In this document: piece by piece, positions 1-56,363 of the stretch
Numbering within the stretch: position 1 is the first letter of the stretch
Layout of the letters: each line of letters starts with the position of its first letter
Source of the DNA: Tricharina praecox
Taxonomy: Eukaryota
Direction of reading: 5' to 3'
NCBI RefSeq assembly: GCF_024521635.1
Contig: NW_026250425.1
Span: 372,001-436,000, forward strand
Length of the DNA: 64,000 nt
Notes under the pieces: generated by a model
Told to the model about the DNA's origin: nothing
Database searches by the model: none
What the model saw: only the letters and a program-made list of their open reading frames with translations
Position numbers and translations under genes: made by a program

Positions 1-3000
1 GTCGCCACGGCTGTATAATGCGCGCGCTTTGTCTGCTACTTTGCGGAGCCCGCAGAGACAGCGGCGGATCAACCGCGGGATCGATGAGTCTTTACCGCCA
101 GCTTCGTCACAGGCCCCTCCAACTCCGGATGCCGATCTCCCTGCTGCTCGGTCTTATCGCCCTCCTCAGCCTACTAGGTCTTCCAGTACGGTTGTTGAAT
201 CACCCAATACCATACAGAACAAGAGGAGAAAGGTCCAGAATCAGTGTACCACGTGGCAGTCCGATGAGGAGAAGAAGGAAGAGGAAGAGGAAGAGGCGGA
301 AATGTTCACGCGACAAAGAAAAAAGCGGGCGACATCGCGAACTGCAGGCGTAAAGGAGGAAACTACGCCAATGCACGTACCCCGGCAACTACAAGAAAGC
401 CAGGACAGTCAACGTTCTCGATCTCAGTGGTTCACACAAGGAGTGGTCAAAGATTCAGACGATGAAGAGGACTTCTCCGATAGCGGCGATCACGAAATGG
501 AGGAAAGCTACGGTATGGGGGATGATGCTGACCTTCTGAGCTTGCTGGAGGACGAAGAAGCTGCCAGTAACCACAACCCAATCCAGAGGGCCAGCGATAA
601 GGGCAAAGCATACGCCACGCCAGTACCACGAATTTCGCCTGCTAAGGTCAGACGGTCACCCCGCAAGGCTAAAGATCTTCCAGAGCCAGTTCCACCCAAC
701 GTGGAGGACGATGACGAGTTTGCAGGGATGTCCGAAACACAGTTGAAGACGATGCTTTCAAGTCTCAAGCAACAGAATTACGAGTTGCTAGATGTCCTCC
801 AGGATCAGTACTACGATGCGGGAGAAGCACCCCCAATGAAGCTGATTACCGAGAAGAAGAAGCTGAAAGCGAAAATTGATCTCGTTACGAAAAGAATTGC
901 CAGTGGTGTCTCAATACCCACTGCCAGCAGTAATCCTTCGTTGATCTCTAGCCCCATCAAGAAGCGCAGCGGCATGGTAGAAGCTACTCAGTATCCTCAA
1001 CTGCAGCCGTTCAATGAACCTCCCACGCATACTAATCCTATACCGTCAACGCCATCGAAACGCAATAAGTACGGGGATGAAACCACGGCTAGCCCCATCA
1101 CCCGGACAATACGATCTCCGCTCAAACCTCCGTCCAGGAGACATTTGCATCCTCCTCCTCCCCCGCCAAACCGTCAACCATCTCCGTCTGTTCGACGAGG
1201 CTTTCCCCAGCGAACTCTCGAGGGCCTACGTCCTCCCGACTCTCCACCGCCGTTCGATCCGGACGATTTTGATTTCGAGGAGGTTGATCCAGTTCCTCGG
1301 AATGTTCCTCAGAATGTTCCTCGGCCCGCTTTACAAAGTGAAGACGAAAACTTTGGCAGTGATTTCGAAGTCGAGGATCTGGAAGAAATCGAGGATGATG
1401 ACATTCGGATAATCGATCCACCACCAACTAGAAAGAGAGCACCCCTCGGTCCTTCAACCGGGAATTCACCAACCCGCAGGACCATCGACCAGGTTCTCGG
1501 AAAGAAGCCCCAGTCAACGCAGCTCGCAAATCCACACATTGAGCTCCTCCAGGGGAAACACCATACCCAGCGTGCCGCGACGGTCGATCTGAATAGTCCT
1601 ACCATGCAGTACCCATGGTCAAAAGAAGTCGCCGCTGCCTTGCGCCACCAGTTCAAACTGAAAGGGTTCCGAAGCAATCAGCTCGAGGCCATCAACGAAA
1701 CTCTTTCTGGAAAAGACGTCTTTGTGATCATGCCCACGGGAGGCGGAAAGAGTCTGATCTACCAGCTTCCTGCTGTGGTTAAGTCGGGAAAGACCCGAGG
1801 CGTGACTATCGTTGTCTCGCCATTACTCTCTCTGATGACCGATCAGGTGGATCATCTTCACGCGAACAATGTTATGGCGTTCTTGCTCAACGGAGAGATC
1901 GAGGAGGCGAGGAAGAAGTTGATATTTCAATGGTTGCGAGACCCCGATGTCGAAAACATGATATCCTTGCTTTACGTAACCCCTGAGATGATCGGAAAGA
2001 GCAACTACCTAATCGACACACTCCGCGATTTACACCGTCGGGGGAAACTCGCCAGAATAGTGGTTGACGAAGCTCATTGTGTATCGCAATGGGGCCACGA
2101 CTTTCGACCGGATTACAAGGAGCTCGGGACTATCAGACCCAACTTTCCAGGCACCCCCTGGATCGCTCTGACGGCTACAGCCACATCGAAGGTGCAACTG
2201 GATGTTCAACGCTGTCTGGGAATGACCGGCTGCAAGGTGTTCACCCAAAGCTTCAATCGTCCCAACCTGAGCTACGTCGTGCGGTCAAGGAACAAAGGAC
2301 CCAAAGTTCTGGCCGATATCGCGGAAATCTGCCAGGAGAACCGGAACAAGGCGGGTATCGTTTACTGCCTGAGTCGGCAGACTTGCGAAAAGGTGGCAAA
2401 GGTGTTGCGGGACCGTGGCATCAACGCTGAACATTTCCACGCCGGAATGGCGTCCGACGAAAAGAGCAAGCTGCAGAAAGCCTGGCAGGCGGGACGGTGC
2501 CATGTAATCGTCGCAACGATCGCGTTCGGCATGGGAATCGACAAGTCGGACGTGCGTTTCGTTGTTCATTACAGCATACCGAAGAGCTTGGAAGGATACT
2601 ATCAGGAAACGGGCAGGGCCGGCAGAGATGGCAAACCCAGTATCTGTACCTTGTTCTACAACTATAGCGACGCAAACTCTCTCTTCCGGATGGTGGACAG
2701 TGGCGAAGGTCCGCACGACCAGAAGAAGCGACAGAAGGAGATGATTCGACAAGTCATCCAATACTGCGACAACGAGGCAGAGTGCCGGAGAGTACAGGTG
2801 CTTCGGTACTTTGGCGACACGAAGTTTACGGCAGATGAATGCAATGCCTCCTGTGATAATTGCTCCTCCGGAGTCGAGTTCGAGCGGCGTGATGTCACCG
2901 ATTATGCCAAAATAGCCCTCAAGATCATCCAGGCATTAGACGGGCAGAAAAAGACGCTCCTCTATGCGGCGGACGTCTTCAAAGGAGCTGGCAAGAAGGC

Positions 3001-4293
3001 TCAGGATACCGATGGCCATATCGAGGGATTCGGGGCTGGGAAGCATTGGACAAAGTCAGACTGTGAGAGGCTCTTCAATAAACTCTCGTCCGAGGAGTTC
3101 ATTGGAGAGCTGCACGTAGCGTCGCGCAGCGGATGGCACAACAGCTATGTCAAGGTAGGCCTTCCCGTTTCTCGATAACATACTCATCTCAACATATCTA
3201 ACCTTTAGAACAGTTGAACAAAACCAATGCCAACAAGATCCTGAATGGGAGAGAAAGGGTGTTCATGTCTTTCATGAAGGAGGGGCAAACGAATGCGAAG
3301 AGGCCCGTCGTCGCGAGGAAACCCGCCTCTTCCACAGCATCCTCTAGGGGCGAGCTTGAGCTGCAGTCTACAAGAGCGAGAGAATCTGACCTCGGTGGGT
3401 TTGTCGTGTCGGATGGGGAATATGATAGCTTGGGGATGCCGCCGATACGAATTGGTCCCTCTCGTAAAGAGCCTTCCGCACGAGCACGCAGGGCAGACCG
3501 CAATCCACCCCAGCAGCTCGGACAACCCATAACGGCAGAGGATGTTATGGCCACTCTCAACCCTTTGGAAATGGAAATGCTCGATCGATTCATCAAGGAG
3601 GCCAGGAAAATCCGGGGTAAAATAATGGAAGATAATGGATTCAGCCGCATCCAATCCGTCTTCGTGGATGGAATGCTCCAGAAGTTCGGAATATTCCTAC
3701 CGACAACCAAGGAGGCGATGGCAGCAATCGTCGGGAACGCAGACAGAGTCGAAGACTTTGGCGCCCAGTTCCTCGCCCTCTGTCGCAAGTTCGCCAAAGA
3801 GAAGGAAGAGAACTTTGCAGACGCGGACATAGGCGAAACCCCCATCTTCCGCAACTTTTCGCAGCCACCGACCGCGGGTTCCTTCATCGCTCTCGACGAC
3901 GACGACGACGACGATGCGGACGAGGATGAGGACTACAGCGGCGGCATGGCGGACGAGGACTTCGAAGACGGCGACACAAGCGAGTACTTCCGCAAAGACG
4001 TTGCCGACAGGCAGAAGGACATGATCAGCCAATGGGAGGCTGGAGCGAGCCAGGCCCGGCCGAAGAAAGCAGCGGTAGGTGCGCGGGGAGGCGGCCGCGG
4101 CGGTAGGGCCCGTGGCTTGAAGAAGCCGTATGGCAGTCGGGCTAGTGGCGCAGAGTCTGGCGGTGGCAGGAGGCAGAGTGGCGGGGCGAGGGGGTTCGCA
4201 AAGAAGAGGGGCGGTGCAAGAGGAGGTGGTGGTGCGGCTTCGCGTGGAGGCGGTGGTTCGAGAGGTGGTGCGGGTCCGAAGGCGTTGTGGTGA
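1..4293 (+). CDS. sgs1: RecQ-family DNA helicase (Sgs1/BLM/MusN-like), 5' end outside window; intron 3155..3213
   Basis: Frame is open from base 2. Motifs FRSNQLEAIN, MPTGGGKSL, DEAHCVSQWGHDFRPDY, ATIAFGMGIDK, YYQETGRAGRDG and RQC cysteines (ECRR..CNASCDNC). A GTAGGC..CTAAC..CAG intron joins YVK to LNKTNA. Exon 2 has an HRDC-like segment and an RGG-rich tail; TGA at 4291-4293. Confidence 0.95.
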
Positions 4294-16343: not shown

Positions 16344-17166
16344 GCACAGTGATGGATTGGTTATCAAGATATAAGGTATCCAAGTACTTTGGAATGAAGA
16401 TGCTCCAGAAAACTTTGGTTCCAGGACATCTCGACTGGCCATGTATTCCAGCCATACCACGTGCGAGCGAATTGAGGTCAGATGTGATAGGGTATTATGA
16501 TCATCATCAATGAAGCTCCATCTCTACGACGACAACGGCTGTGGCAACCATGTTCCTTTCCGCGGCCAATTCTACACAAATTTATCACCCAGCCCTCGAT
16601 GGTGTCTTCTTTCTCCAGGCTTCGAGAGGGGCTTCCACGAGTTGGGCTTGTCTATCTCTTGGTTTACAAGAATGTCTGTTGAGTACTCGATGTAAATCCA
16701 ATGGACATGACATCCCACCGGCAACCTAATGACCCACCCTCCTTTTCAATGCACACGTCTTCGAAACACAAAATCTAACTCAAATAAATGTGGAGAAGTT
16801 TACTTTCCTCACCCTAGCCCACGATGGACCAGTGGACGAGGGGTTTCCAGCCAGCAATGAACATGGTTTGTTTACCAGATAAGCTTCTGATATAATCTAC
16901 AAAAGCTTTAGGCATGAAATCTACCATAAGTCTATGCTCTGCCTAGACGTACGCGACGCCTCCAGACAAATCCTGAGCTCATCGACTACGTATACTTCAA
17001 CAATAACATGTACGTGGCCGTAACCTCTCCCGCAAAATTTGACTGCTTATACTTTCCATTCGATAGGTTAAAAGGGCTCCCCCCAAATGTCCCTCGCTGC
17101 TGAAGGATTCCGAAAAGTTCTCCAATCTCGCCAGTCCTGTCTCCGAAAAGTGGCAATCAATCGAGA

Positions 17167-19532
17167 ATGAGGCTTCATTCGCTTCTCCTCCTGGCTGCCA
17201 CCGCAGCTGCCTATGCCGCCGTGCCCCCAGCGCTTCCCGAAGACCACGTCCTTCGTAGCTTCCCCAGGGTATTCAACGGTCGTAATACTGACAATAAAGC
17301 GTTCTTCGACACGAATGTCCACCGTCACGGCAAGCGCGATCCGCAGCCCGTTGTGCAGCCTACGATCGCAGATTGGTGGACTCTGAACACACCCCAGTTT
17401 CTGCAATCCTACCTCAACTCGACCACGGCCGGCGAAATCACCGAAATACTTGGACGTTTCGGGGGCCTGGCTCATTGCTATGGCCTCGTCAATCTCCGCG
17501 GACACTCCAAAAGTACGTCCGATGCTGAGCAGTGTTCGAACCTGCGCGCCGAGCTGGGAACCGACGACAGTGCCCGCGCCGAGATGGTCCTCGCCTCCCT
17601 CACCAATTTCGCTTCGACGTTCGAGCTGATCGCCGATTCCATCGATGGAGGCTTCCGCGGCGCTGGGATTTTGATCGAAGAGCTGCCGTACACGAAGGCC
17701 TGGTGGGATAAGTTCCCAAAGGAGGGGAAGGCCAAGCTTTCCCAGGAGAACGTCATCTCTATCATTCGGGACTCGTTCATTAGTGGAATGCCCTGGTTGA
17801 CGCCCGAGGCTTGGAATTCCACCGCCGCGCTCGTGTACGACGAGGCTTCGAAGATGCGTGATGTCTCTAAAGTGGCGAATGTGGACCTTGGAGCGAAAAG
17901 TGCTTCGCTCAACAAGTGGGACCAGCTGTTTGGCAGCCAGATCGACCTGAAGTTCTTGGATGAAGCCCGCCGGTCGATGGACTACCATCCTACTATGGGA
18001 AGGGATAGTGTCGAGATCATGCGTGTTGCCGACGGTGGAGTTGAGGTGGCGGAGAAGATCGAGAAAATCGTCACCAGCGAAGAGTTTGCGAAGGCTCAAG
18101 AGGACACTTGGAATGCATTATTCTCGATGGTCCAGGCCATCGGAAGGCCCACCACCCTCAGGTCCAAGGTGGTGAAGCATCTCGACACGGTGTCTGTGCT
18201 GGACTTTTTTGGTGCCACGGCGTCGCTGGCGGAGCTTTCTGTTGGCAAATCGATCGCGGCATTGTTCAACGGAACGCTGGACATGAGCGGTGGCCTGTTT
18301 GAGCTGTTGGAGTACGGAAATCTGCTGTCGGCTAGAAACTGGACCGTTGAGCACCTGCGAGAAGTTTTCCCCGAGTCAGTTCCCCGAGTCCGTTTTTGCA
18401 CGATCTGTATGACTGACAAACGGACAGGATGCTTGCCAGACGCCTCTACCACAAGATCCTCAATTACGCTCTCGCGGAAGACCAGGTCTACATAACCTGC
18501 ACCATCCTGGACAAGGACGAGAACAAGCCTCTGTTCGGCAAATACGTCGAAGGTTCTACATGCTACCACGATCGCACGGGGCCGCAGGACATGAAGGCTT
18601 GTCTCGACAATGAGCACGTCTGCTACCTCTACCGATGGAAGGAGCCGACCAGCAAATGGAAATTTTGGTATAGGGCGCACAGCGACAAGCCCGCCGGAGT
18701 CGAGCACTGGGGTGCTGGACCGCACCTTACCAAAGTTAGCGATATCATCAAGTCGTCCGTGAGCTCCAAGCTTCAGAATCTCAAGGACTACCGCCTTACC
18801 CAGGACGACAAGCCCCTCTTGACGTCAAAATGGACTGACATCACGGAGGTCGGCAAGGCGTCGACTCCAGGTGTCTTCAACGTTCCCGTCTGCTACTCCA
18901 ACTACAGTTGGAACACGCCCCTCGAGGTCGCCCGCGAGAAGAAGCACTGGTACGAGACTCCCTGCCGCCAGGGCGACCCATACTGCCACGAGGCGGCTCT
19001 CCCGTGTTACTGCGGGTCCTGGGGATCCGAGACCATGGATGTGTGGGACGCGATCGGCCACGTCAAGAAGTCTAAGGACGGCGGTACCCGTGCCAGAAAG
19101 GTATGTGGAAAACGCATCAAGGATAGGATCACGCACCCTATCGAGGCGTACGTTGCCTACTGCAGACTCGATATCAAGCGTGTTGAGGGCTTGACGTCGA
19201 ATCGCGTCGACGGACGCTTCACCACCGAAGGAAAGGACAAGTACTGCGATGACGTGATCCGCATCATCGAGGTCAATGGCTACGAGAGCCCCGCCAGTAT
19301 GGACTCCGAAGTCAGGTATGCCATCTATTGCAAGATCTTGGGAGACGGGACTAGGTGCCGCATGTACGACGACCAGTGGGATGCTCTCCTGGCTGCTGTG
19401 ACGCCTGCGGTCGAGCTAGAACCCGATGCTGTAGCTATAGATGAGGTAGTGGAAGAGGAGGTGGAAAAGTATGAGAGTGAATTTGCGAAAATGGTACTGG
19501 AGGACGACAGCGGCGAGGAGGAGGAGGAATGA
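17167..19532 (+). CDS. Secreted protein of unknown function, 770 aa; intron 18375..18427
   Basis: Signal peptide MRLHSLLLLAATAAA and a Kex2-like KR site (HGKR-DP). A GTCAGT..CTGAC..CAG intron fuses the 442-aa and 367-aa ORFs in frame. Cys-rich C-terminal half and an acidic tail. Confidence 0.85.
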
Positions 19533-20639: not shown

Positions 20640-20770
20640 TTTTTTCATTTTTCATTTTCATTTTCCTTTTTTCATTTTCATTTTCATTTTTTTCATTCTC
20701 ATTTTTTCATTTTCATTTTTCATTTTCATTTTTTTCATTCTCATTTTTTCATTTTCATTTTTCATTTTAA
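20640..20770 (+). repeat. Imperfect (TTTTCA)n array, about 130 bp
   Basis: Directly visible; starts at the base after the TGA of the TFIIS-like gene. Confidence 0.95.
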
Positions 20771-21004
20771 TCATTGCATTCGACGTTTGAACAGCGACTA
20801 TTTCGGAATGTGTAATTTAGGTTGGGGCTGTGGGCCGAGTGACATCACGTGAAGCCCTGTAATTTTGTTACGGAACCCGCTAGCGTGAGTGTGAACTCAA
20901 CTATATCAGTGGGCGTGATATCTTGACGCCGACCTTTCTCTCCCACCATCACACTCGAAACTGCTTCATACCCGACGACTTGCATCCATCCAAAAGCACC
21001 CGTC

Positions 21005-21191
21005 CTCGGCGACGACTAAGCTCTTCATCCATACATCCATCCTCGGCGACGACTAATTGCTTCATCCATACATCCATTCTCGGCGACGACTAAGCTCTTC
21101 ATCCATACATCCATTCTCGGCGACGACTAAGAGCTTCATCCATACATCCATCCTCGGTGACAACCAAGAGCTTCATCTCGGCGACGACTAA
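21005..21191 (+). repeat. 37-bp minisatellite CTCGGCGACGACTAAnnnCTTCATCCATACATCCATY, 4 full copies plus 2 partial copies
   Basis: Unit starts at 21005, 21042, 21079, 21116, 21153 (degenerate, truncated) and 21177 (partial). Confidence 0.95.
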
Positions 21192-21224
21192 TTCAGATAA
21201 TTGGGCGCTCAAAAAATCGACAAG

Positions 21225-23896
21225 ATGAGGGCTATTCTTCCAGCTCTAGCTTTCCGCCTGGAACCAGCCCCATTCCCTCCGCTCATCCCCACCACCATCG
21301 ACAATATCACCGCCATCCAGAGAATAAATTTCACGAGCTGCGCCAACCAGTTCGCTGACGATATTCTCTACTACCTACTTCTAAGAAAAGACAATTTGTC
21401 ATTTCCTCTCACATCTGTGGATCTACTGAGCGAGTATGTATACTTGGACCCCCGAACATAAGACGAAAGTGTTGCTGACTCCTAGAAGCGTGGTGGATCA
21501 CTTTGCACAGAGCGACATCTCCGACAACATTCAGATCCCACGCGCACTAACCGCAGGCGTGATCAGCGAGTGCTTTCAGGCACTCGACGAGCTGTTTGCA
21601 AATAACGATGTCTTCAAGGTTCAGATGGACGAAAGGTCTAGGTTGGTCATTGAGAACATCAATTGGGAGGTAGTCGCTTGGTACGCGAGTGAGATGCGCA
21701 AGGCCAATCCTCGGGGATATGCCGAACTGGTGATCAACAGTCCGTCCGATGCCACCAATGAAGCACCTGGCTATCGTCCAGTGCGACTTTCGGATGTTTT
21801 CGCGCCTACAGAGCTCACGACAGATGTGGAGGACTTCACTGAGCGTAGTAGGTGCCTCCCCATGCAACTGACTCCTCCTCATCTCCAGACTTCCCCCAAA
21901 GACATCGATGCGGACTCGGCTGACCCAGCCATCACAGCTGCCGAACTGGATATTGACAGTCTGTCAGATACTACGAACGAAGCGTCCGGAAATAGTCCAG
22001 TGCGATCTTGGGATGTTAGCCCGCATACAGAGCTCACTACAGAAGTGCAGCACCTCACTGAGCGTCGTAAGTGCCTCCTCCACATCTCCAGATTTCCCCC
22101 TCCGAAGACAACGATGCAGACTCGTCTAACCCATCCGTCACAGCAGCAGTGCCAACGGAAAATATGGCGGCCACTGCGCCGATTACCACACCACCAATGC
22201 CAGCAGCGCACAATTTCACCATTCCGGCCTCTCTTGCGTCCGCCATGGCTGCTAGGCCTTACTATCTCCAGACGTTCCTCGGCCCCATTCCTATCGCGAA
22301 GGTTCGTTTACAGCGTCTGAAGGCCTTCGTGCAGAAGGTCTGTCTTGAAGCTCCCGCCGAGCTTCCCTGCCAGCATGTCACTGTGGATAAGTGCATGGAG
22401 AACAACGACGGAGTGGCTTGCAAGGACAAGTACCACTTCGCTATCGTCTACAACGCGTACACGAACGTCGCGTACGGCGATTGTACTTTCCTTTCGGGCT
22501 GCTATAACTGGGATACGTGTCCGTATATTCACTATACGAGAGTGCCAGCGATCAATCCCAAGACATTTGCGGACATGATCAAGTTGCCCAAGCAATTGGA
22601 GCAGGCCATGACCTACAAGTACGGGAACGTCGAGGAGGCTGTCCGAGAGATCGCCTCTGAGGTCAAGGATGGCCGAGAGTATCCCGCGCAGTGGATCAAT
22701 ACCGACATCATGAAGTTCAATTTCAGAGTCATCGGGAGGTACGATGTCATCATGATCGATCGTAAGTGTTTTCCTTCCCGTGAGAGGTATTCAATGCTGA
22801 CAGTCCCAAGCTCCGTGGAGCATCCACATGAAGCTGCCATACCAACAGCTATCAGACAACGACATCGGGAATCTTCCTATCGGTCGGCTGCAAGATTGCG
22901 GCATTATCTTCCTGTGGGTCACCGGTCGTGTCCACAACAAGGGCATTCAGTTTCTTAAGGATTGGGGGTACGTTTGCACACCTTTATTTTTCCCGTGGTC
23001 CAAGGGTTACTAATACCTTTCAGATACAAGTACGTCGACCAGATCACCTGGGTCAAGGTTAACCAGATCAATGCCACAATTGCGACGGGAAGGACCGGCC
23101 ATTGGTTGAACCACTGCAAGGAGACTTGCTTGGTCGGTATCAAGGGATCGCCCAAGGCGAACTTTATGCTCGACAAAAACTCGATCGTAGAGGAAGTCCG
23201 CGGAACCAGCCAGAAGCCGGATGCGGTGTGTTTCTTTCCTCCTACTCCACCCCCACCTACTAATTTCGCGAACAGATCTACGGCATCATCGAGCGGATGA
23301 TGGGACCTGCCGCGAGGAAGCTCGAGTTGTTCGGAAGGGTCCACAATCTCCGAGCTGGTTGGCTGAGTATGTTTCCCCTCTCCCCCAGCGAACGATACCA
23401 ACTAACACACCAAATAGCTATCGGCAACCAGCTCCCCGGTGTCAACCTCGTGGAGCCGATCCTCAAGCGTCGGTACCAGAGGTACCTCTGGCTGCAAGCC
23501 AACAGGCCCTCCAGGAGCGACAGTGAGGCCGACTCCACGCCCGCCACGCCCGTCCCGCCCACCAGTCCGCGCCGAAAGTCAGTTGAGTTTTTGTTGTCCG
23601 CGTCGTCCCCTTTGTCCTCGCCGAGCGCGCAGCAGCAGAACCGCAAACTGTCGTTCCGGGATCCGCCTCAGCAGGCCGAGCACGAGGCCAGCCTATTGCC
23701 GGACGCCCAGGACGCCCAGCACTTGCTGCCCCCCAGCCCCGGTCGCCGCTTGGTGACTCACGGCCACGGTCGCCGCATAGTAACCGATCAGAGCCCGAGA
23801 GGGGGCGCGGTCCTGGAAGCTCGCGCTTCCGTTCCCGGCACCTATGGTAGTGGACGCCCTCTGTTTCCCAGGACTCATCGCGGAGGCCACAGGTAG
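21225..23896 (+). CDS. ime4: METTL3/Ime4-type mRNA m6A methyltransferase (MT-A70 plus tandem CCCH zinc fingers), about 748 aa; introns 21434..21485, 21848..21937, 22067..22143, 22762..22810, 22968..23023, 23226..23275, 23367..23417
   Basis: ZnF1 CQHVTVDKC..CKDKYHF; ZnF2 GDCTFLSGCYNWDTCPYIHY. Then PAQWINTDI, spliced DPPWSIHMKLPY, FLWVTGR, WVK.NQ..TGRTGHWLNH.KE.CLVG.KG, VRGTSQKPD, RKLELFGRVHN and IGNQL. Spliced length is 2247 nt, divisible by 3. Introns 2-3 have alternative solutions. Confidence 0.9.
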
Positions 23897-24443
23897 TCGT
23901 CCGCGCCGTCGTCCGTGCCGCCGCCGCAGCGACCAGGAAGCCACAGACAGTCCGCGCCGTCGTCGCCGTCGTCGCCACCACAAGGAGGCCAGTAGCTCAC
24001 GTTACTGTGCTTGAGAGGGAGTAGAGATTAGATAGTTAATGAACTGATCTAGTCACCAAGTATATGGTTCACTGTGATTTATTTTTTGAAAACGCCCATA
24101 AACCATCCCAGAAATCCGTAGTACACAGGTAAGGTAAGTCTTCTCCGCTATCTTGTACAATGAACACATAGATAGCATCCATCTCGGAACTCGACCCCCG
24201 ACCCGACAGAATAGACCCCAAGTGCTATGTATATGCCGGCGCCTTGGCCGCCAGATCACTCGGTCCCGACAATGCTCGGCGGTTGTGTGTATCCCTGAGG
24301 CAAAATGCATGTGACCCGCCACACCGGACCGGCCGGCCCGCACCAGGGCTTTCACCTCGACTGGCCAGGGCGGGTAGGAAAAAGGAGTTCGTTGGTCCGC
24401 CATAGTTTAGGTACCTAGGCTGCATGCGAAATAAAACAGGAAG

Positions 24444-36350: not shown

Positions 36351-37079
36351 CGGTGCTACCGATAGTCCAGTCCATTCCAGTCCAGTCCAGTCCATAAAAT
36401 TGGAGGACGGCTTGAATTTAGTCTGTCCCAGAGATTTGCCGCCTCGGACTGCAGTCGACTGACAGACTGCCAATTTCTGGAATTTTTGGGTCGAACCAGG
36501 TATATGTAGCTAGAGGGTATCACTCTTTCAACCTATCAAATGTTCTCTTTCCGTACCATGCCAGCCCTCTATCTCCTACCCCACCGTCGTCTGAATAAAG
36601 ATATGATGGAGGTTTTCCAGCAGGAACCGCCTCCATGCGATTCCATGGACAATGTGGTACAGTACTCGTTGAATAAACCACATGAACCTCGCTGGAAAGA
36701 TCTTACCAAAATGGCCCTCCAGTATTTGAGCCTTCCCGCCATGAGAGCAGAGCTGGAACGAGTTTTTAATGGGGCTAAAACTACTCTCTCTCATCGTCGC
36801 TGCAGCATGGGTGAGGACGCACTGAAGGGCCCTGGAAAGTCTCAAAAGCTGGTAACGAGATGGTCTTGTAGCTGCTACAAAGGGTGATGTCAAGGAGATG
36901 GGGAATATCCTCAATGCAATGTGCGAGGCGGATCTGCAATAGCTGTACTATAGACGTGTATTCACAAAAAGTTCATTACTGATTTCAAACATTTTCCATT
37001 CAAAGTACCAGTCCATCAAGTCGACTGCAGTCCATCCAGTCCGCCCAGTCGACTGCAGTCCGTCCAGTCGAGTAACACT
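36351..37079 (+). mobile_element. Degenerate hAT DNA-transposon relic carrying the transposase C-terminal dimerisation fragment
   Basis: About 36600-36860 encodes RWKDLTKMALQYLSLPAMRAELERVFNGAKTTLSHRRCSMGEDAL, then a frameshifted LESLKSW. This matches the hAT dimerisation motif L.SIPA.SA..ERVFS. Flanked by CAGTC/GACTG subterminal repeat clusters at 36364-36466 and 37009-37070. Boundaries are approximate. Confidence 0.75.
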
Positions 37080-46543: not shown

Positions 46544-49500
46544 ATGGCGACCCACGGGACGAGCGTCGGTGCTAAGGCCACTGAGGTCAACACCACGGCG
46601 GCCTCGTCCATCTCTGCCTCCACGTCGTCTACTGAGTGTGCCTTGAAGCCGATAAGCAGTGAGAAGGATGGAGAGCCGGCGGAGAGGGATGGACGCTGGG
46701 GAGAGGCCTTCACCGACCCCGTGAATGTCGGCGAGGCGCTGCACGAATACGAGGAGTACGTTTGATTGATCGATCCCATTCTCGAGTCGGGACGTGTGCT
46801 GATGATGTGCGCAGCCTCCGACGAGAGCTCAGCCGAGTCCCCACGACAGGCCGACGGCCATCCATGAGTGGCCGGCACGGATCGGTCTTCAGCCCCAAGA
46901 AGCCCTCGCCGGACGAAGAAGAGGGCGAGGCCTCCGCCGACACCACGCTGATCGACCTCGAGGAGTATCTCCAGAACCGATCCCGCGAGCGCGGCAAAGA
47001 GGCGGGAATAATACCCAAGAAGATTGGCGTTTCCTTCCGCGACCTGACGATCTCAGGGTACGCCGGCGCGGGCTGGGTGCTGGTCGAGACGTTCCCGCAG
47101 AAGCTGCTCTCGCTGTTTGGGTGGGATATCGTCAAGTATGCGCAGAGGTTGCTGGCTCCGGCGCCACAGGAAAAGCCCATCATTCAGGGCTTCAGTGGTG
47201 TCGTCAAGCCCGGGGAGATGTTGCTGGTTCTGGGGAAACCTGGGTCCGGTGCTTCGACTTTCTTGAGGGCGTTGACGAATCAGCTCAGAGCTTATACTAA
47301 GATCGATGGCGACATTAACTACGCCGGCCTGCCTTTTGAGTTGGCTCTGGGACAGTTTAGAGGAGAAATTCTCTACAATGACGAAGGTGAGTCGCTACGT
47401 GTATTCGACGCGAGTCTTGAACGACTGACTGACATGTTTTTCTGGTAGAGGATACACATCTGCCAACCTTATCGGTGGAGCAGACCCTTCGATTTGCGCT
47501 GAGGGCAAAAACACCACATACGAGGCTTCCAGGAACCTCTCGTAAGGAATTCGTCTCGGAGATGCTGAACCTCTTCGCCACCATGTTCAAGATGAAGCAC
47601 GTCCTCAACACCATGGTAGGCAACCAGTTCATGCGGGGAGTCAGTGGCGGTGAGCGGAAGCGAGTATCGATCATGGAAGCCTTGGCCTCGCGGTCGACCA
47701 TCAATGCCTGGGATAACAGCACGAGAGGACTCGACAGCTCCACTGCCGTCGACTACATCCGCTCTCTGCGGATCCTGACCAGCATCCAACAGTCAACCAC
47801 CATCGTAACCTTGTACCAAGCCGGAGAGCAGATCTACAAGGAGTTCGACAAGGTGTGTCTCATCCACGAAGGCCGTCAGATATTCTTTGGTAAAGCCTCG
47901 GAGGCTCGTCGCTATTTTGAGGATTTGGGATTCGCCGCCACTGCCCGCATCACCACGAGCGATTTCCTCACCACCATCACCGACGCAAAGACTCGGCGTA
48001 TCCGCCCGGGTATGGAGGGCAGAGTACCGCTCACAGCCGAGGCCCTCGAAACAGCATTCAAGAGCAGCAAATTCTGGCCCGAGTTGCAGGCCGAACTGGA
48101 GGCATACGATCGGGAACGGCAGGAGACCTCGGCGGCAGACACGCGAGACTTCAGACAAGCCGTGGTGGCTGAAAAATCGCGGCGTGCGCCCAAGGGATCG
48201 CCCTACACCGTCTCGTTCCCCATGCAGGTATGGTATCTGACCAAGCGGGAGCTTCAGCTGCAACGACAAGATGTCATTGCGCTGCGAAGTAAACTGATCA
48301 ATGTCGTCATCCTCGGCCTGTTGAACGGCAGTCTTTTCTACAACATCAAGCGGACATCGGAAGGTGCATTCTTCATCGGCGGTGTGCTCTTCTTCAATAT
48401 CATCATTGTTTCCTGGATGCAGATCTCGGAGACTATCTTCATGGTCATGGGAAGAAACATCATGGCGAAACAGAAAGCCTTTGCGTTTTACCGACCGGCC
48501 GCTTTGATACTCGCCCGGACGCTCGCCGATCTGCCCTTGTTGGCTGTTCAGACTGTGATCTTCACTCTCATCCTTTACTGGATGGCTAATCTTGTCGCCG
48601 ATGTTGGCAAATTCTTTACCAATCTGTTGTTTGTCTTTGTGAGTTTCTTTTACCTGGCTGCATTCTATCTTTGCTGGGATGATGGCTGACGAAGGAAACA
48701 GACTACCGTGATCTGTGTTACCGCGTTCTATCGCGTGGTTGGTGCGTTCAGTAGGGACATCAACATCTCCATTCGACTTGCATTCATCGGACTCAATGTC
48801 ATCGCCCTGTTCGCGGGTTACATGCAGCCGTATCAGGCCATGAAGTCTTGGGTGTACAAATGGATCTACTGGGCCAAGTAAGTGCTTGCTCCACAACCAA
48901 ATGCTATAAACATCGGAAAGCTGACTGGCATGTGTCGAATAGCCCATTGATGTACAGCATGGAAGCCGTGATGGTAAACCAATTCCATGGGATGGAGCTC
49001 GAATGTTCACCATCCCACATCATCCCGGGAATCCCCGGAATATCTACGGCGAACCAAGCCTGCAATCTGGCCGGAGCGAGACCTGGCTCCCTGACAATCT
49101 CCGGAACGGACTACATCAAGACCTTCGGCTACGACCCATCGCACCTGTGGCGCAACTTCGGCGTCCTTATCGCCTTCACCGTTCTCTACATCATCGTGGC
49201 CATGCTCGGAGTCGAATACATGGATTTCGGTGCTGGCGGAGGGTCTATCAAGATCCTTACGAAGCCACCGCCTGTCGCAGCCGAGGAACCTCCCACTGTC
49301 GAAGAGAAGCAGGAGTCGTCGGCACTGGCAAACGACACCGAGAAATCGATGGATATCACACGCCGAGTCACCACCGTCAAAGCTAAGGGTTCGTTCTTCA
49401 CGTGGAGAAATGTCGATTACTCTGTTGGAGATGTACAGCTCCTGCACGGTGTCAACGGCTACTGCAAGCCTGGCCGTCTGACTGCGCTCATGGGCCCTAG

Positions 49501-51364
49501 CGGCGCGGGAAAGACTACGCTGCTGGATAATCTGGGCATGCGGAAACGTGTTGGTGTCATCTCCGGAGAGCTGAGGATGGATGGAAGGGAACTGGCGCCG
49601 GACTTTGGGAGGAGTACAGCATTTGTGGAGCAGCAGGATGTTCATGATGGTATGTACATGGCTGTCAGATGTTTTCGGTCTGATCCGAGCTAACGTTTAT
49701 TCACAGAGATGTCGACCGTAAGAGAAGCAATGAGGTTCAGTGCCCTCCTACGGCAACCGGCGAGCGTTTCGAAAGAAGACAAGTACAAATTCGTGGAAGA
49801 GATCATCAAGCTCCTCGAGCTCGAATCACTCGCCGATGCGATCATTGGGTCGCCGGGGTTCGGACTCTCGGTCGAGGAAAGGAAGCGGGTCACTATTGGA
49901 GTAGAACTAGCATCTGCGCCTTCCGAGCTGTTATTCCTGGATGAGCCAACATCTGGGCTGGATGCCAACGGTGCACTCTCCATCGTCCGGTTCCTCAGGA
50001 AACTGGCAGATGAGTCCGGTATCGCAATCTTGGTGACGATCCACCAGCCGAGTGCTGTATTGTTCCAGGAGTTCGACGACTTGCTGCTTCTGGCGCGCGG
50101 CGGAAAGGAGGTCTATTTCGGACCGATCGGAGACGCTGGCCAGACCGTAATCGACTATTTTGAACGCAACGGAGCAGCCGCCGCACCCGCAGACGCGAAC
50201 CCCGCGGAATACATACTGGATACAATCAGGGTTCCAGCCGGGCCTCAGGGCTGGACGGAGACCTGGGATTCCTCGCCGCAGAACAGCGCGCTGTTGGAGG
50301 AGATCAAGACCATCATCACCACCAGAAAGAACATTCCCCTATCTCGCGAGCTGAGAACCCAGGAGTACGCCATGCCGCTGTCGACCCAGATAGTGGCCTT
50401 GACGGAACGAGTCTGGCTGCACTACTGGCGCGACGCATCCTACGGCTACTCCAAGTGTTTCTCGGGCCTCTCGATGGCCCTCGTGGCCGGTGTGCTCTTC
50501 CTGCAGTCCGGCAATAGCGTCATCGAGATGCAATCGCGCACCTTCGCGGTGTTCCTCGTGCTGATCCTGTCGCCCATGATCCTGACGGCGGTGCAGCCCA
50601 AGTTCCTGCAGCTCCGCACGCTCTACGAGACGCGCGAGCGAAACAGCAAGATCTACTCCGCGCCCGCCTGGATCACGGCGATGGCACTAGTCGAGATCCC
50701 CTACGCCATCCTGAGCTCCGTGTTCTTCTTCCTGCCGTGGTACTACATGATCGGCCTGCCCAACAACGCGTCGATCGCGGGGTACGTATTCCTCTTCATC
50801 ATGCTATTCAACATCTGGATTCCACACATCGCCATGTGGATCGCGGCGGTCTGTCCGGACCTGACCATCGTCAACGTCGTGAACCCGTTCATCTTCATCG
50901 TCAACAACGGCTTCACGGGGATCCTGGTCACATACTACGCCCTGCCAACATTCTACCGTTCCTGGCTCTACTGGGCAAACCCCCTCACCTGGCTGACCCG
51001 CGGCCTGCTCGCAAGCATCATGCACGAGCTGCCGGTGCGCTGCTCCGCCGCGGAGCTCGTGCGCTTCACGCTCCCCGCTAACACCACGTGCGGCGCGTTC
51101 GCGGGCGAATGGCTACAACAGGCCTCGGGATATATCGTCGATATCGACGCGGCTGATGAGTGCCAATACTGCATCTTTGAAAACGGTGATGAGTACTTGA
51201 AAACTATCAACGTCCAGTTCGAAAACAGATGGAGGGACCTCGGAGTCTTTTGTGTGTTTTTGGTCACGAATTTGGTACTCGTGTACACGCTGTACTGGGC
51301 GTTTAGGGAGTATAGGTGGAGCAGGCTCTGGGCGAGGGTTAGGGGGCGGGAGGTGAAGAATTGA
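46544..51364 (+). CDS. Full-size PDR-type ABCG transporter; introns 46756..46814, 47387..47448, 48639..48701, 48878..48942, 49650..49706
   Basis: NBD1 GKPGSGAST / VSGGERKRVSI / WDNSTRGLDSSTA. NBD2 GPSGAGKTT / LSVEERKRVTIGVEL / FLDEPTSGLD. Two TM domains with LWRNFG and RWRDLG motifs. Confidence 0.96.
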
Positions 51365-53977: not shown

Positions 53978-55196
53978 ATGCTAGTATCCCCCAGGACGAC
54001 CAGAGCCGTTTGCTCACGGCTCGCCACGACCCATTTCCGGCCGGCGTGCTCGGTGCTGCTGCGGCATCCACCGGCCTACGGCCACACTTCGACCTTCACC
54101 ACCACGGCGGTGACCCACCTCCCGCGCTCCCAAGCCCAGCCCGAGCTCAAGCTCAAGCTCGAGTCCGAGTACACGATCACCGAGCCGACGTGGCCGCACC
54201 CAGTGTACACGTTCGAAGAGATGGAGCAGATCGTGAGTCGCTACCCATTCCCGCTCCGCTTCTCCCGGTTGGTTGGCTGCTAACACATGTGTGTGTAGAA
54301 AATCGCCCACCGCAAGTGCTCAAGCTGGTCCGACTACGTTGCGCTGACGGCCGTGCACGTAGCCCGGTGGGGCTTCGACCTAGCGACGGGGTACAAGCAC
54401 GACGCGGCGGTAGCACTCGGGAAGAAGGACCCCGCTGCAGCGGTGCAGAAGTACGCCATGAACGAGTCCAAGTGGCTGACGCGGGTGATCTTCCTCGAGT
54501 CCATCGCGGGCGTCCCCGGTATGGTCGGCGGAATGGTGCGACATCTCCACTCGTTGAGGCTCCTCAAGAGAGATAATGGCTGGATCGCGACGCTGCTCGA
54601 GGAGAGCCAGAATGAGCGCATGCATTTGCTCACGTTCCTCAAGTTCCGCGAGCCGGGGATCTTCATGCGCACCATGCTGCTGGGCGCTCAGGGGTGAGTC
54701 ACCTACCTCCTACCTCCTGTCTGCTGTCATGTGATCGATAGACTAACACCCCCCCGCCAGAGTCTTCTTCAACTTCTTCTTCCTCGCATACCTGATCTCG
54801 CCGCGCACGTGCCACCGCTTCGTCGGCTACCTCGAGGAGGAAGCGGTGATCACCTACACGCGGATCATCGCGGACCTCGACGCCGGCAAGCTCCCGAGCT
54901 GGGAGGGCATGGAGGCGCCGCAGATCGCGAAGGACTACTTCAAGCTCCCGCCGGGCAACGATAGCGTCAAGGATCTGCTCCTGGTAGTCCGCGCCGACGA
55001 GGCAAAGCACCGCGAGGTAAACCACACCCTGGCCAACCTGGAGCAGAAGATGGATCCGAACCCGTACGCTGCCGTGTGGCCAGCCGGAGTCCCAACGCCC
55101 AGCAAGGGATACCAGTGGATCAAGGGCACTGGCTGGGAGCGTGAGGAGCTGGCGAAGTTGGCGGCGGAGAAGCCGGCCGCAGTCGTCAAAGTTTAA
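53978..55196 (+). CDS. aox1: Mitochondrial alternative oxidase; introns about 54234..54298 and 54694..54760
   Basis: [51 protein letters not shown] and [12 protein letters not shown]; di-iron ligands intact. Confidence 0.96.
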
Positions 55197-55573: not shown

Positions 55574-55961
55574 TCACACATCGCTCGGCACCGGCGGCTC
55601 CTCATAACTCTTGACCTTCCTAAACCCCTCCTCGCCGTTCTTGACTGCGACCTCTTTTCTGTCAAGCCTGACGACGTGGGCGCCCGGCGGTCCCTTATCG
55701 ACGGCCTTCAGGAACGCCTCGACGTCGCTCTCGGCGCCCTGGACTTCGCCCTGCACCGCCGTGCCCGACGGAAGGTTGTGCACCCACCCCGTCAGCGAGA
55801 GGTCTGTCGCTGTCTGCACCGTGTGCGCCCGGAAGAATACGCCTTGTACGCGCCCGCCGTGGGCAGTGAAGAAGATCTGGGCAGTATTAGTAGAGTGAAT
55901 GGGGGGGGTGGGGTTGAAGAGGGGGGGGGTGGGGAGTGGTACATACGCGTTTAATTGACAT
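55574..55961 (-). CDS. Acylphosphatase; intron 55877..55946
   Basis: MSIKR-IFFTAHGGRVQGVFFR..LTGWVHN..VQGEVQG..KGPPGAHV; catalytic Arg and Asn are present. Confidence 0.9.
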
Positions 55962-56363
55962 CGTGGGTTGCGGGTGTGACGAAGTGAAGTAGGTTGGTGG
56001 TGGTGGGAGACGTGAGCTCGAGGCGGGGTGGGAGCTGGGATGGGAGCTGGCAGGGGAGGGGGGGTCGCGGCTTGGCGCTTCATTGGCGCGCACTCGGTGA
56101 TGATCCAAGCAACAAACTTGGTCCTGTGGACGGCAGGATGTCATCTTGGATATCACTCGCGCGGCGGCGGCGGTGGCATCTTCGTCTACCGGGGCAGCAC
56201 TGTACGGTGCTCTACATACGGGTTTGATTGACGTGCAATTGAACTCGATCGCAACTCAAACCCACAATACGCTAGAGGAGTGACTGTCGATGCCGATGCC
56301 GATGCAGGCACACTAGAGTGGAAAAGTTGCGCCGAAAGTTGCACCGCTCGAACCTACTACCTA

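Follow-up and report, generated by a model that had tools for sequence, protein, structure and literature searches.

Ime4/METTL3 is the catalytic subunit of the mRNA N6-methyladenosine (m6A) methyltransferase. In filamentous ascomycetes, the m6A writer is reported to be a different protein, MTA1, which belongs to the METTL4 clade (PMC10826363; PMC11361730). A census built on PF05063 (MT-A70) proteins collected from UniProt gives MTA1 as the only MT-A70 protein of Pezizomycotina and states that IME4 and KAR4 were lost (Kim et al. 2023, PMC10826363), and the loss statement is repeated in PMC11361730. In Table S1 of this census, the MTA1 sheet contains occurrences 1-938 of the word "Pezizomycotina", and the next, occurrence 939, comes only in the YTH1 sheet. 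Going by this table, the IME4, KAR4, WTAP and VIRN sheets therefore hold no entry from the subphylum. The earliest mentions of "Pezizales" and "Orbiliomycetes" in the same table are likewise in the YTH1 sheet, so no MT-A70 protein is catalogued there for either, and YTH readers are listed for six Pezizales species (PMC10826363). No literature report of an Ime4/METTL3 gene in Pezizales was found. The gene considered here lies at positions 21225-23896, on the + strand, of a stretch of 64,000 nucleotides from Tricharina praecox contig NW_026250425.1 (positions 372,001 to 436,000), and this whole stretch is called the window. An original prediction, made from the letters of the window, had proposed a divergent METTL3/Ime4-type m6A writer in a filamentous ascomycete, and had tentatively taken model Pezizomycotina to lack a clear Ime4 orthologue, which matches the account of Kim et al. 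2023 (PMC10826363). Our preferred reading, at a rough probability of 0.78, is that the gene encodes a functional and vertically inherited orthologue of Ime4/METTL3 in a Pezizales-like soil fungus of the Pezizomycetes. The host can be named more narrowly than had been proposed, as a Pezizales-like fungus and not a filamentous ascomycete of the model type. A RecQ helicase gene at 2-3175 has its best named relatives exclusively in Pezizales (Wilcoxina, Tuber, Choiromyces, Geopyxis, Ascodesmis and Ascobolus, at 57-64% identity), with other classes lower, which places the contig in Pezizales, within an early-diverging class of Pezizomycotina.

A reading of 20800-24400 with a scan of donor and acceptor sites gives a single gene on the + strand, from ATG at 21225 to TAG at 23894-23896. 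Once spliced, its coding sequence of 2337 nt forms one open frame of 778 amino acids, carried by seven exons, and the six introns (52, 77, 49, 56, 50 and 51 nt) all run GT..AG and carry a CTRAY branch motif close to the acceptor. All features of the gene given below are on the + strand. Exon 3 (22144..22761) encodes a linker, CCCH finger 1 (22368-22436, C-x7-C-x8-C-x4-H), CCCH finger 2 (22482-22532, C-x5-C-x5-C-x3-H) and the start of the methyltransferase, with the SAM (S-adenosylmethionine) contact TDI (22701-22709), and ends with the D and the first base of DPPW. Exon 4 (22811..22967) continues with (P)PW and gate loop 1 (SIHMKLPY); WVTGR then leads into the divergent segment VHNKGIQF, and GRVHNKG lies at 22924-22944. 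Exon 5 (23024..23225) holds the interface loop (NQINATIATGRTGHWLNH), CKETCLVG and gate loop 2 (TSQKPD), with KVNQINATIATGRTGHWLNH at 23055-23114. The SAM-binding segment IYGIIERM...RKLELFGRVHN is found in exon 6 (23276..23366), where ELFGRVHN occupies 23324-23347. Exon 7 (23418..23896) encodes (T)IGNQL, with GNQL at 23423-23434, the family-conserved LVEPILKRRYQRYLWLQ and a tail of some 130 residues rich in Ser, Pro and Arg, which ends at the TAG stop. The two fingers, TDI, ELFGRVHN and GNQL are all found at the places where they had been predicted.

Two CCCH fingers directly N-terminal to an MT-A70 domain constitute a METTL3-specific architecture. To our knowledge, neither METTL14 nor METTL4 carries CCCH fingers. 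Exon 3 matches human METTL3 with an E-value of 1.1e-13 and the solved zinc-finger domain 5yz9 with an E-value of 2.3e-11. In pairwise HMMER comparisons with all Protein Data Bank (PDB) chains, exon 5 reaches 77.6 bits with METTL3, compared with 43.7 for ciliate MTA1 and 13.8 for METTL14, and exon 4 scores 45.1 bits against METTL3 and 24.7 against ciliate MTA1, with no match to METTL14. No METTL4-named chain is present among the PDB matches of exon 5 (36) and exon 4 (20) at E-values up to 10. An identity as METTL14/Kar4 was rejected given the 13.8 bits and a motif that reads DPPW and not EPPL, and an identity as METTL4/MTA1 given the presence of the zinc fingers. The assignment to the METTL3/Ime4 type, as originally proposed, agrees with both the architecture and the best score, and m6A-writing activity is predicted from these. 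At the residue level, alignments show identity to human METTL3 at D377, I378, D395-W398, I400, M402, Y406, T433-R435 and K459, and also at R471-H474, H478, E481, K513, E532, R536, H538, N539, N549 and Q550. The SAM contacts considered are those of the METTL3 structures of 2016. Together with the product-pocket residues as PMC10441475 lists them, all positions mapped from human METTL3 as catalytic, SAM-binding or product-pocket are kept in the predicted protein.

The DPPW motif is interrupted in the DNA by intron 3 (22762..22810, 49 nt, GTAAGT..GCTGAC..AAG, phase 1). Exon 3 ends with ...ATC GAT C and exon 4 starts with CT CCG TGG, and D-P-P-W is formed once 22762-22810 is removed. The rebuilding of DPPW across a 49-nt intron was thus correctly foreseen, but not the proposed split D-P|P-W, because the intron lies in the first Pro codon and not between the two prolines. 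On the Pfam MT-A70 profile (PF05063; curated cut-off 23.9 bits), the exons take up consecutive positions, with exon 4 at 9-66 (37.3 bits), exon 5 at 68-139 (58.4 bits) and exon 6 at 141-167 (20.3 bits alone). Human METTL3 is likewise covered without gap or overlap, at residues 273-395 by exon 3, 397-447 by exon 4, 449-515 by exon 5 and 517-545 by exon 6, the single residues missing between them being those whose codons are split by introns, and the agreement goes far beyond chance. The other introns of the catalytic part are intron 4 (22968..23023, 56 nt, GTACGT..TACTAAT..CAG, phase 2), whose position is kept in all close loci, intron 5 (23226..23275, 50 nt, GTGTGT..CTACTAAT..CAG, phase 0) and intron 6 (23367..23417, 51 nt, GTATGT..CAACTAAC..TAG, phase 1).

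A metagenome scan gave 80 loci, nine of which are close relatives of the window gene and form four lineages (L001-3, L004, L005-7 and L008-9). In these nine loci, tblastn finds each catalytic exon end to end, separated by GT..AG gaps of 49-70 nt at the same sites and in the same phases. Introns 3-6 are conserved in site, with GT..AG, in 9/9 of them, and in 7/9 DPPW is rebuilt and the frame continues. Seventy loci have an exon 3 match reaching the Asp codon, which is followed by an unbroken DPPW in 58, by C|GT... in nine and by another sequence in two, the remaining one ending at a contig edge. The nine C|GT... loci are exactly the close family, so the DPPW intron is a shared derived trait of this family. 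Over exons 4 and 5 (118 codons), the ratio of nonsynonymous to synonymous substitution rates (dN/dS) is 0.13 against L004 and 0.12 against L003, with dS near saturation, and the gene of the window is under purifying selection (dN/dS ~0.12). No indel within the gene is seen in contigs from three other samples. Twenty single-nucleotide polymorphisms (SNPs) fall in the gene, a small number, with six in the 335 nt of intron and 14 in the 2337 nt of exon (eight synonymous and six not). Two of these population SNPs lie in intron 3, and all four that lie in the core from the fingers to the methyltransferase are synonymous. Altogether, splicing of the predicted DPPW intron is supported by comparison with relatives, by collinearity with human METTL3 and by purifying selection.

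The family to which the gene belongs is small. A HMMER search of exon 3 against 1.84 billion cluster representatives gives 203 proteins at E<=0.001, 16 at <=1e-10 and three at <=1e-30. The first ten matches are the family, at 36-57% identity, apart from one row at 99%, which represents either the exon of the window itself or a copy nearly identical to it. Every one of the ten family cluster proteins ends at or before the DPPW intron. The next match after the family is Saitoella, a taphrinomycotine ascomycete, followed by generic METTL3/Ime4 proteins. Among 30 looked-up proteins of the 150 listed matches, the only named Pezizomycotina are Sphaerosporella brunnea and Pyronema omphalodes, both Pezizales. 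Equally close orthologues are thus not found throughout Pezizomycotina, the related clusters amounting to about a dozen with these two species named, and the gene is not routine in the sense that the original prediction had considered. Two trees were built, both from METTL3-type sequences only (without METTL14, METTL4 or AMT1), and both leaving out L004, L005 and L007, which have frameshifts, and the near-duplicates L001, L002 and L008. The quick tree has 45 rows, namely the window, L003, L006 and L009 with the 41/44 matches that carry DPPW and GRTGHW (P0255, P0281 and P0285 omitted). The careful tree has 37 rows and 290 columns, with four family rows and 14 named and 19 unnamed matches. In the careful tree, the family and Pyronema are monophyletic with support of 100/100 on a stem of ~1.9 substitutions per site, in keeping with the earlier description of the gene as fast-evolving, and the METTL3 backbone is unresolved. 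The best careful tree places the family, Saitoella and two yeast Ime4 on one side of a branch with support of 73/81. This grouping with ascomycete Ime4 fits vertical descent within Ascomycota, but all its members are on long branches, and long-branch attraction may therefore explain it.

The 5' part of the gene differs from the catalytic part in how far it can be followed in relatives. Exon 1 (21225..21433) opens with the start codon and encodes the first 69 residues of an N-terminal domain specific to the family (MRAILPALAFRL...), and is found by tblastn in loci L002-L005 and L007 at 57-62% identity, with a conserved N-terminus MRA(I/T)LPALAFRL. Intron 1 (21434..21485, 52 nt, GTATGT..CTGAC..TAG) corresponds in relatives to 51-59 nt that separate the match to exon 1 from the match to exon 2. 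Exon 2 (21486..22066) contains the remainder of the N-terminal domain in its first 108 codons and then a variable linker with a tandem duplication, and relatives align by tblastn to residues 1-108 only, at 48-50%. Over the whole domain, the N-terminal 175 residues are 48-62% identical within the family. The tandem duplication (21766..22149, + strand) consists of copy 1 at ~21766-21943 and copy 2 at ~21985-22149, with an identity of roughly 80%. The reading frame is shifted in copy 2 by a 16-nt deletion and a 3-nt insertion. A contig of a second independent sample (X2, record 7) spans 21376-22360 with four substitutions and no gaps, so the arrangement of exon 2 is not an assembly slip of a single sample.

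Intron 2 (22067..22143, 77 nt, GTAAGT..TCTAAC..CAG) is proposed on this basis and is specific to this lineage; the original prediction had not pointed it out. In relatives, exons 2 and 3 are one continuous open reading frame (ORF), and the stretch taken up by intron 2 in the window is homologous to coding sequence in L004. Unless 22067-22143 is removed, the N-terminal domain and the zinc fingers do not share a frame, although acceptors at 22146 and 22149 would serve the frame just as well. Of the 109 GT..AG pairs that restore the frame, those with donor 22067 are alone in offering a consensus donor site together with an ordinary intron length and a branch motif 14-20 nt from the acceptor. One alternative uses the GTAGGT donor of copy 1 at 21848 and skips copy 2 entirely. 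Both copies of the duplication have donor-like (GTAGGT / GTAAGT), branch-like and acceptor-like signals. Intron 2 thus looks like a candidate for a recent intron gain, in which a frame-breaking duplication would have been followed by intronisation.

Several observations weigh against a functional orthologue. The assignment to a clade rests on pairwise scores and domain architecture, because the trees contain no METTL14 or METTL4, and support is weak for the place that the family, on its long branch, takes within the METTL3 clade. Intron 2 is unique to the lineage and lies in what is coding sequence in relatives; if it is not spliced, the frame is broken and no full-length protein would be made. 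The sequencing runs that contain this DNA are four, all of soil-metagenome DNA from one study, and RNA runs among them number zero. The relatives are not uniformly maintained, as indicated by frameshifts and degenerate motifs. L004, the closest relative (56% identity in exon 3 and 76-87% in exons 4-6), lacks one nucleotide of exon 3 (L004:2400-2520) and is either a recent pseudogene or affected by a contig error. L005 and L007 share a 1-nt deletion (GGG to GG) right after DPPW (L005:4520-4790 and L007:4520-4790), at a place where L006 (644-915) is intact, and L005-L007 are near-identical contigs from different samples. In L005-L007, moreover, the third Cys of finger 2 is lost, GRTGHWLNH has become GRTSRWPNH and ELFGRVHN has become ELFGGERN. 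L005-7 co-occur with L001-3 in the same three samples, with a dS of 0.57 between the groups, and may represent a sister species or else a paralogue in decay. The copy in the window shows none of these frameshifts or degenerate motifs. As regards partners, Kar4/METTL14, Mum2/WTAP and Vir1 are not recorded for any Pezizomycotina in the census of PMC10826363, as its Table S1 stands. The window itself gives no Kar4/METTL14, Mum2/WTAP, Vir1, YTH, MTA1 or further Ime4 gene within its 64 kb in Pfam scans of 9 + 129 ORFs. METTL3 is generally considered dependent on METTL14.

For a functional Ime4 orthologue, a mechanism can be proposed. The protein would bind SAM and flip the target adenosine into the DPPW pocket, with the RNA held by the CCCH fingers. 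The m6A that it would write on mRNA could be read by the YTH-domain proteins catalogued in Pezizales. Partner contacts unlike those of METTL3-METTL14-WTAP are suggested by the changes in the first half of the interface loop and in the helix that follows WVTGR, and by the N-terminal domain of the family. The ancestor of Pezizomycotina may have had both IME4 and MTA1, with IME4 kept by Pezizomycetes and MTA1 by the classes that diverged later. Of the retained m6A system that had been suggested, only half is shown, namely the intact Ime4 gene. A broader proposal combines complementary retention (a METTL3-type writer without MTA1 in Pezizomycetes and the reverse in later classes) with remodelled partner surfaces that would serve no canonical Kar4/METTL14-Mum2/WTAP complex, the enzyme being self-sufficient or having a new partner, and with a gain of intron 22067-22143 by intronisation; taken as a whole, this combination is tentative and rather doubtful.

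The changed surfaces could also mean that the function itself has changed. A neofunctionalised METTL3-type enzyme, which would not be a Kar4-dependent mRNA writer but would work by itself, in homodimeric form or towards a different substrate (structured or small RNA, or single-stranded DNA), would account for the long stem of the family (~1.9 substitutions per site) and for the changes that the whole family shows in the interface loop (first half) and in the helix that follows WVTGR. In the human complex, the interface loop is described as held by METTL14 contacts (PMC10441475). The N-terminal domain points the same way, since it matches no Pfam family, and hhalign of the family profile against 21 METTL3-type N-termini gives a probability of 3.5%. 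Structure prediction adds little here: AlphaFold2 of the Sphaerosporella model, aimed at the N-terminal domain with a 10-row alignment, is poor (mean predicted local distance difference test score, pLDDT, of 45.8; predicted template modelling score, pTM, of 0.29). In the ESM Atlas, the first 108 residues of exon 2 retrieve only bacterial clusters at 0.90, with a recognition value lower than that of known families, and this result was treated as noise. Neofunctionalisation would also suit a census that gives no KAR4, WTAP or VIRN for Pezizomycotina in its Table S1 (PMC10826363). However, the same census missed this IME4 family, and its blanks for partners therefore carry little weight. Moreover, both zinc fingers are intact, as are the residues of the RNA and product pocket, and R468, one of the two arginines replaced in the window protein, is also lacking in yeast Ime4. 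An altered function is accordingly considered unlikely.

A decaying or dead copy has also to be weighed, in which indels in exon 2 would have broken the frame, the signals of intron 2 would be coincidental and the 3' half would not be part of a full-length protein. It draws on the change of frame between 22066 and 22144 and the homology of the skipped stretch to L004 coding sequence, on the frameshifts of L004, L005 and L007 with the degenerate motifs of L005-L007, and on the lack of an RNA run among the sequencing runs with this DNA. Within the window, however, no other exon has a stop or frameshift, and the key residues are intact. The four SNPs of the core are all synonymous and dN/dS is ~0.12. 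The signals of intron 2 speak against coincidence: a perfect GTAAGT donor, TCTAAC placed 14 nt ahead of CAG and, at 77 nt, a typical length come together in just one of the 109 solutions. The second sample has the same arrangement of exon 2 without indels. Decay of this copy is thus quite improbable. Horizontal transfer into the ancestor of Pezizales from a non-ascomycete eukaryote, which could be read into the absence of the gene from every other class of Pezizomycotina in the census (PMC10826363, Table S1), the unresolved METTL3 backbone and a chytrid as nearest non-family row by path length in the careful tree, is very hard to sustain against a best tree that puts the family with other ascomycete Ime4 (73/81), fungal-type introns of 49-77 nt with CTRAY branch motifs, an ordinary fungal housekeeping neighbourhood with microsynteny across family lineages, and Saitoella as next-best match after the family.

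If the Ime4 reading holds, the retention of a putative Ime4/METTL3 orthologue in Pezizales is a correction of a published generalisation, and not a new mechanism. An intact Ime4 gene under selection in Pezizales would suggest that the two writers were sorted lineage by lineage, in place of the view of loss in filamentous ascomycetes (PMC10826363; PMC11361730). It would provide a natural comparison within one subphylum, with a METTL3-type writer in cup fungi and truffle relatives and a METTL4-type writer in the remaining classes. Pyronema is a laboratory model for fruiting-body development, and the link of Ime4 to sexual development could be tested there in a filamentous fungus. The family would be easily overlooked: the DPPW intron and the four short catalytic exons end automatic gene models early, and domain-based censuses therefore miss it. 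The likely reasons in the present case are that the Sphaerosporella model is without the domain, and that the Pyronema model, in the cluster look-up, is sourced from NCBI only and has no UniRef entry.

Other features of the locus can be described briefly. Just upstream of the ATG, in the promoter or the 5' untranslated region, lies a 37-nt tandem repeat (20973..21177, no strand assigned), for which Tandem Repeats Finder gives 4.7-5.3 copies with 84-90% matches. One contig of run X1 differs in this array by 74 nt (two units). Further upstream of the start codon, at 20642-20768, is a T-rich 42-nt repeat. At the other end of the gene, neither PDB nor Pfam gives a match for the C-terminal Ser/Pro/Arg-rich tail. 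One sample reads CAG for the stop TAG at 23894, by which the disordered tail would gain ~33 codons, with the next in-frame TAG near 23994. The upstream neighbour (17104-19529) consists of two overlapping long ORFs without a Pfam match. Its homologue adjoins the Ime4 homologue in L003 (63-73% identity) and in L008/L009 (50%), and the linkage of the two genes is thus found in three lineages. The other genes of the window are ordinary fungal genes, among them an actin-family gene, a fumarylacetoacetase, an FKBP, a PDR-type ABC transporter and an alternative oxidase. The transporter, of PDR/CDR type (46663-51361), is spread over at least four ORFs, so that it is interrupted by introns. The alternative oxidase is at 54299-55193 and an acylphosphatase at 55577-56140 on the minus strand. 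An isolated fragment of a hAT-transposase dimerisation domain at 36510-36884 is probably a transposon remnant.

Compared with known systems, the window gene is most like human METTL3 and Saccharomyces cerevisiae Ime4, with which it shares two CCCH fingers followed by MT-A70, the DPPW motif and the SAM and product-pocket residues, at 36-60% identity over the aligned exons. It differs from both in an unrelated N-terminal domain of 175 residues and a long Ser/Pro/Arg tail, and in a methyltransferase domain that is spread over four short exons with an intron inside DPPW. Against human METTL3, R465 and R468 are both Ala in the window protein. The first half of the interface loop is changed from QLQRIIRT to QINATIAT and the helix after WVTGR from AMELGREC to VHNKGIQF, both family-wide and outside the catalytic pocket, and LPYGT has become LPYQQ. 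The original prediction had singled out the two lost arginines and the change of GRAMELG to GRVHNKG as drift, and the alignments bear out both. Yeast Ime4 (Trichomonascus, Komagataella) also lack R468, however, so that only the loss of R465 is specific to the family, and that of R468 is not peculiar to this gene. The ciliate MTA1/AMT1, a DNA N6-methyladenine (6mA) methyltransferase (PDB 7f4l, 7yi8), is the second-best solved relative of the catalytic exons at 43.7 and 24.7 bits, about half the METTL3 score, and has no match to the zinc-finger exon. The MTA1 of Pezizomycotina (METTL4 clade; Magnaporthe, Fusarium and Cryphonectria) also has an MT-A70 domain with DPPW, but is 350-460 amino acids long and without CCCH fingers in the entries of Table S1 of PMC10826363, whereas the window gene resembles METTL3. 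The closest named relatives are those of the family itself. Their automatic gene models are not called Ime4, and neither species is found in the MT-A70 sheets of Table S1 in the census (PMC10826363). In Sphaerosporella brunnea, FN846DRAFT_990048 ("hypothetical protein") is 37-38% identical over exon 3, and its model reads through the DPPW intron and then stops, so that it is without an MT-A70 domain. In Pyronema omphalodes, KAI5815855.1 ("MT-A70-domain-containing protein, partial") belongs to the same family with support of 100/100 and is partial at the N-terminus. With these two proteins, the window gene shares the family traits (I/L)ATGRTGHWLNH and GNQLP.

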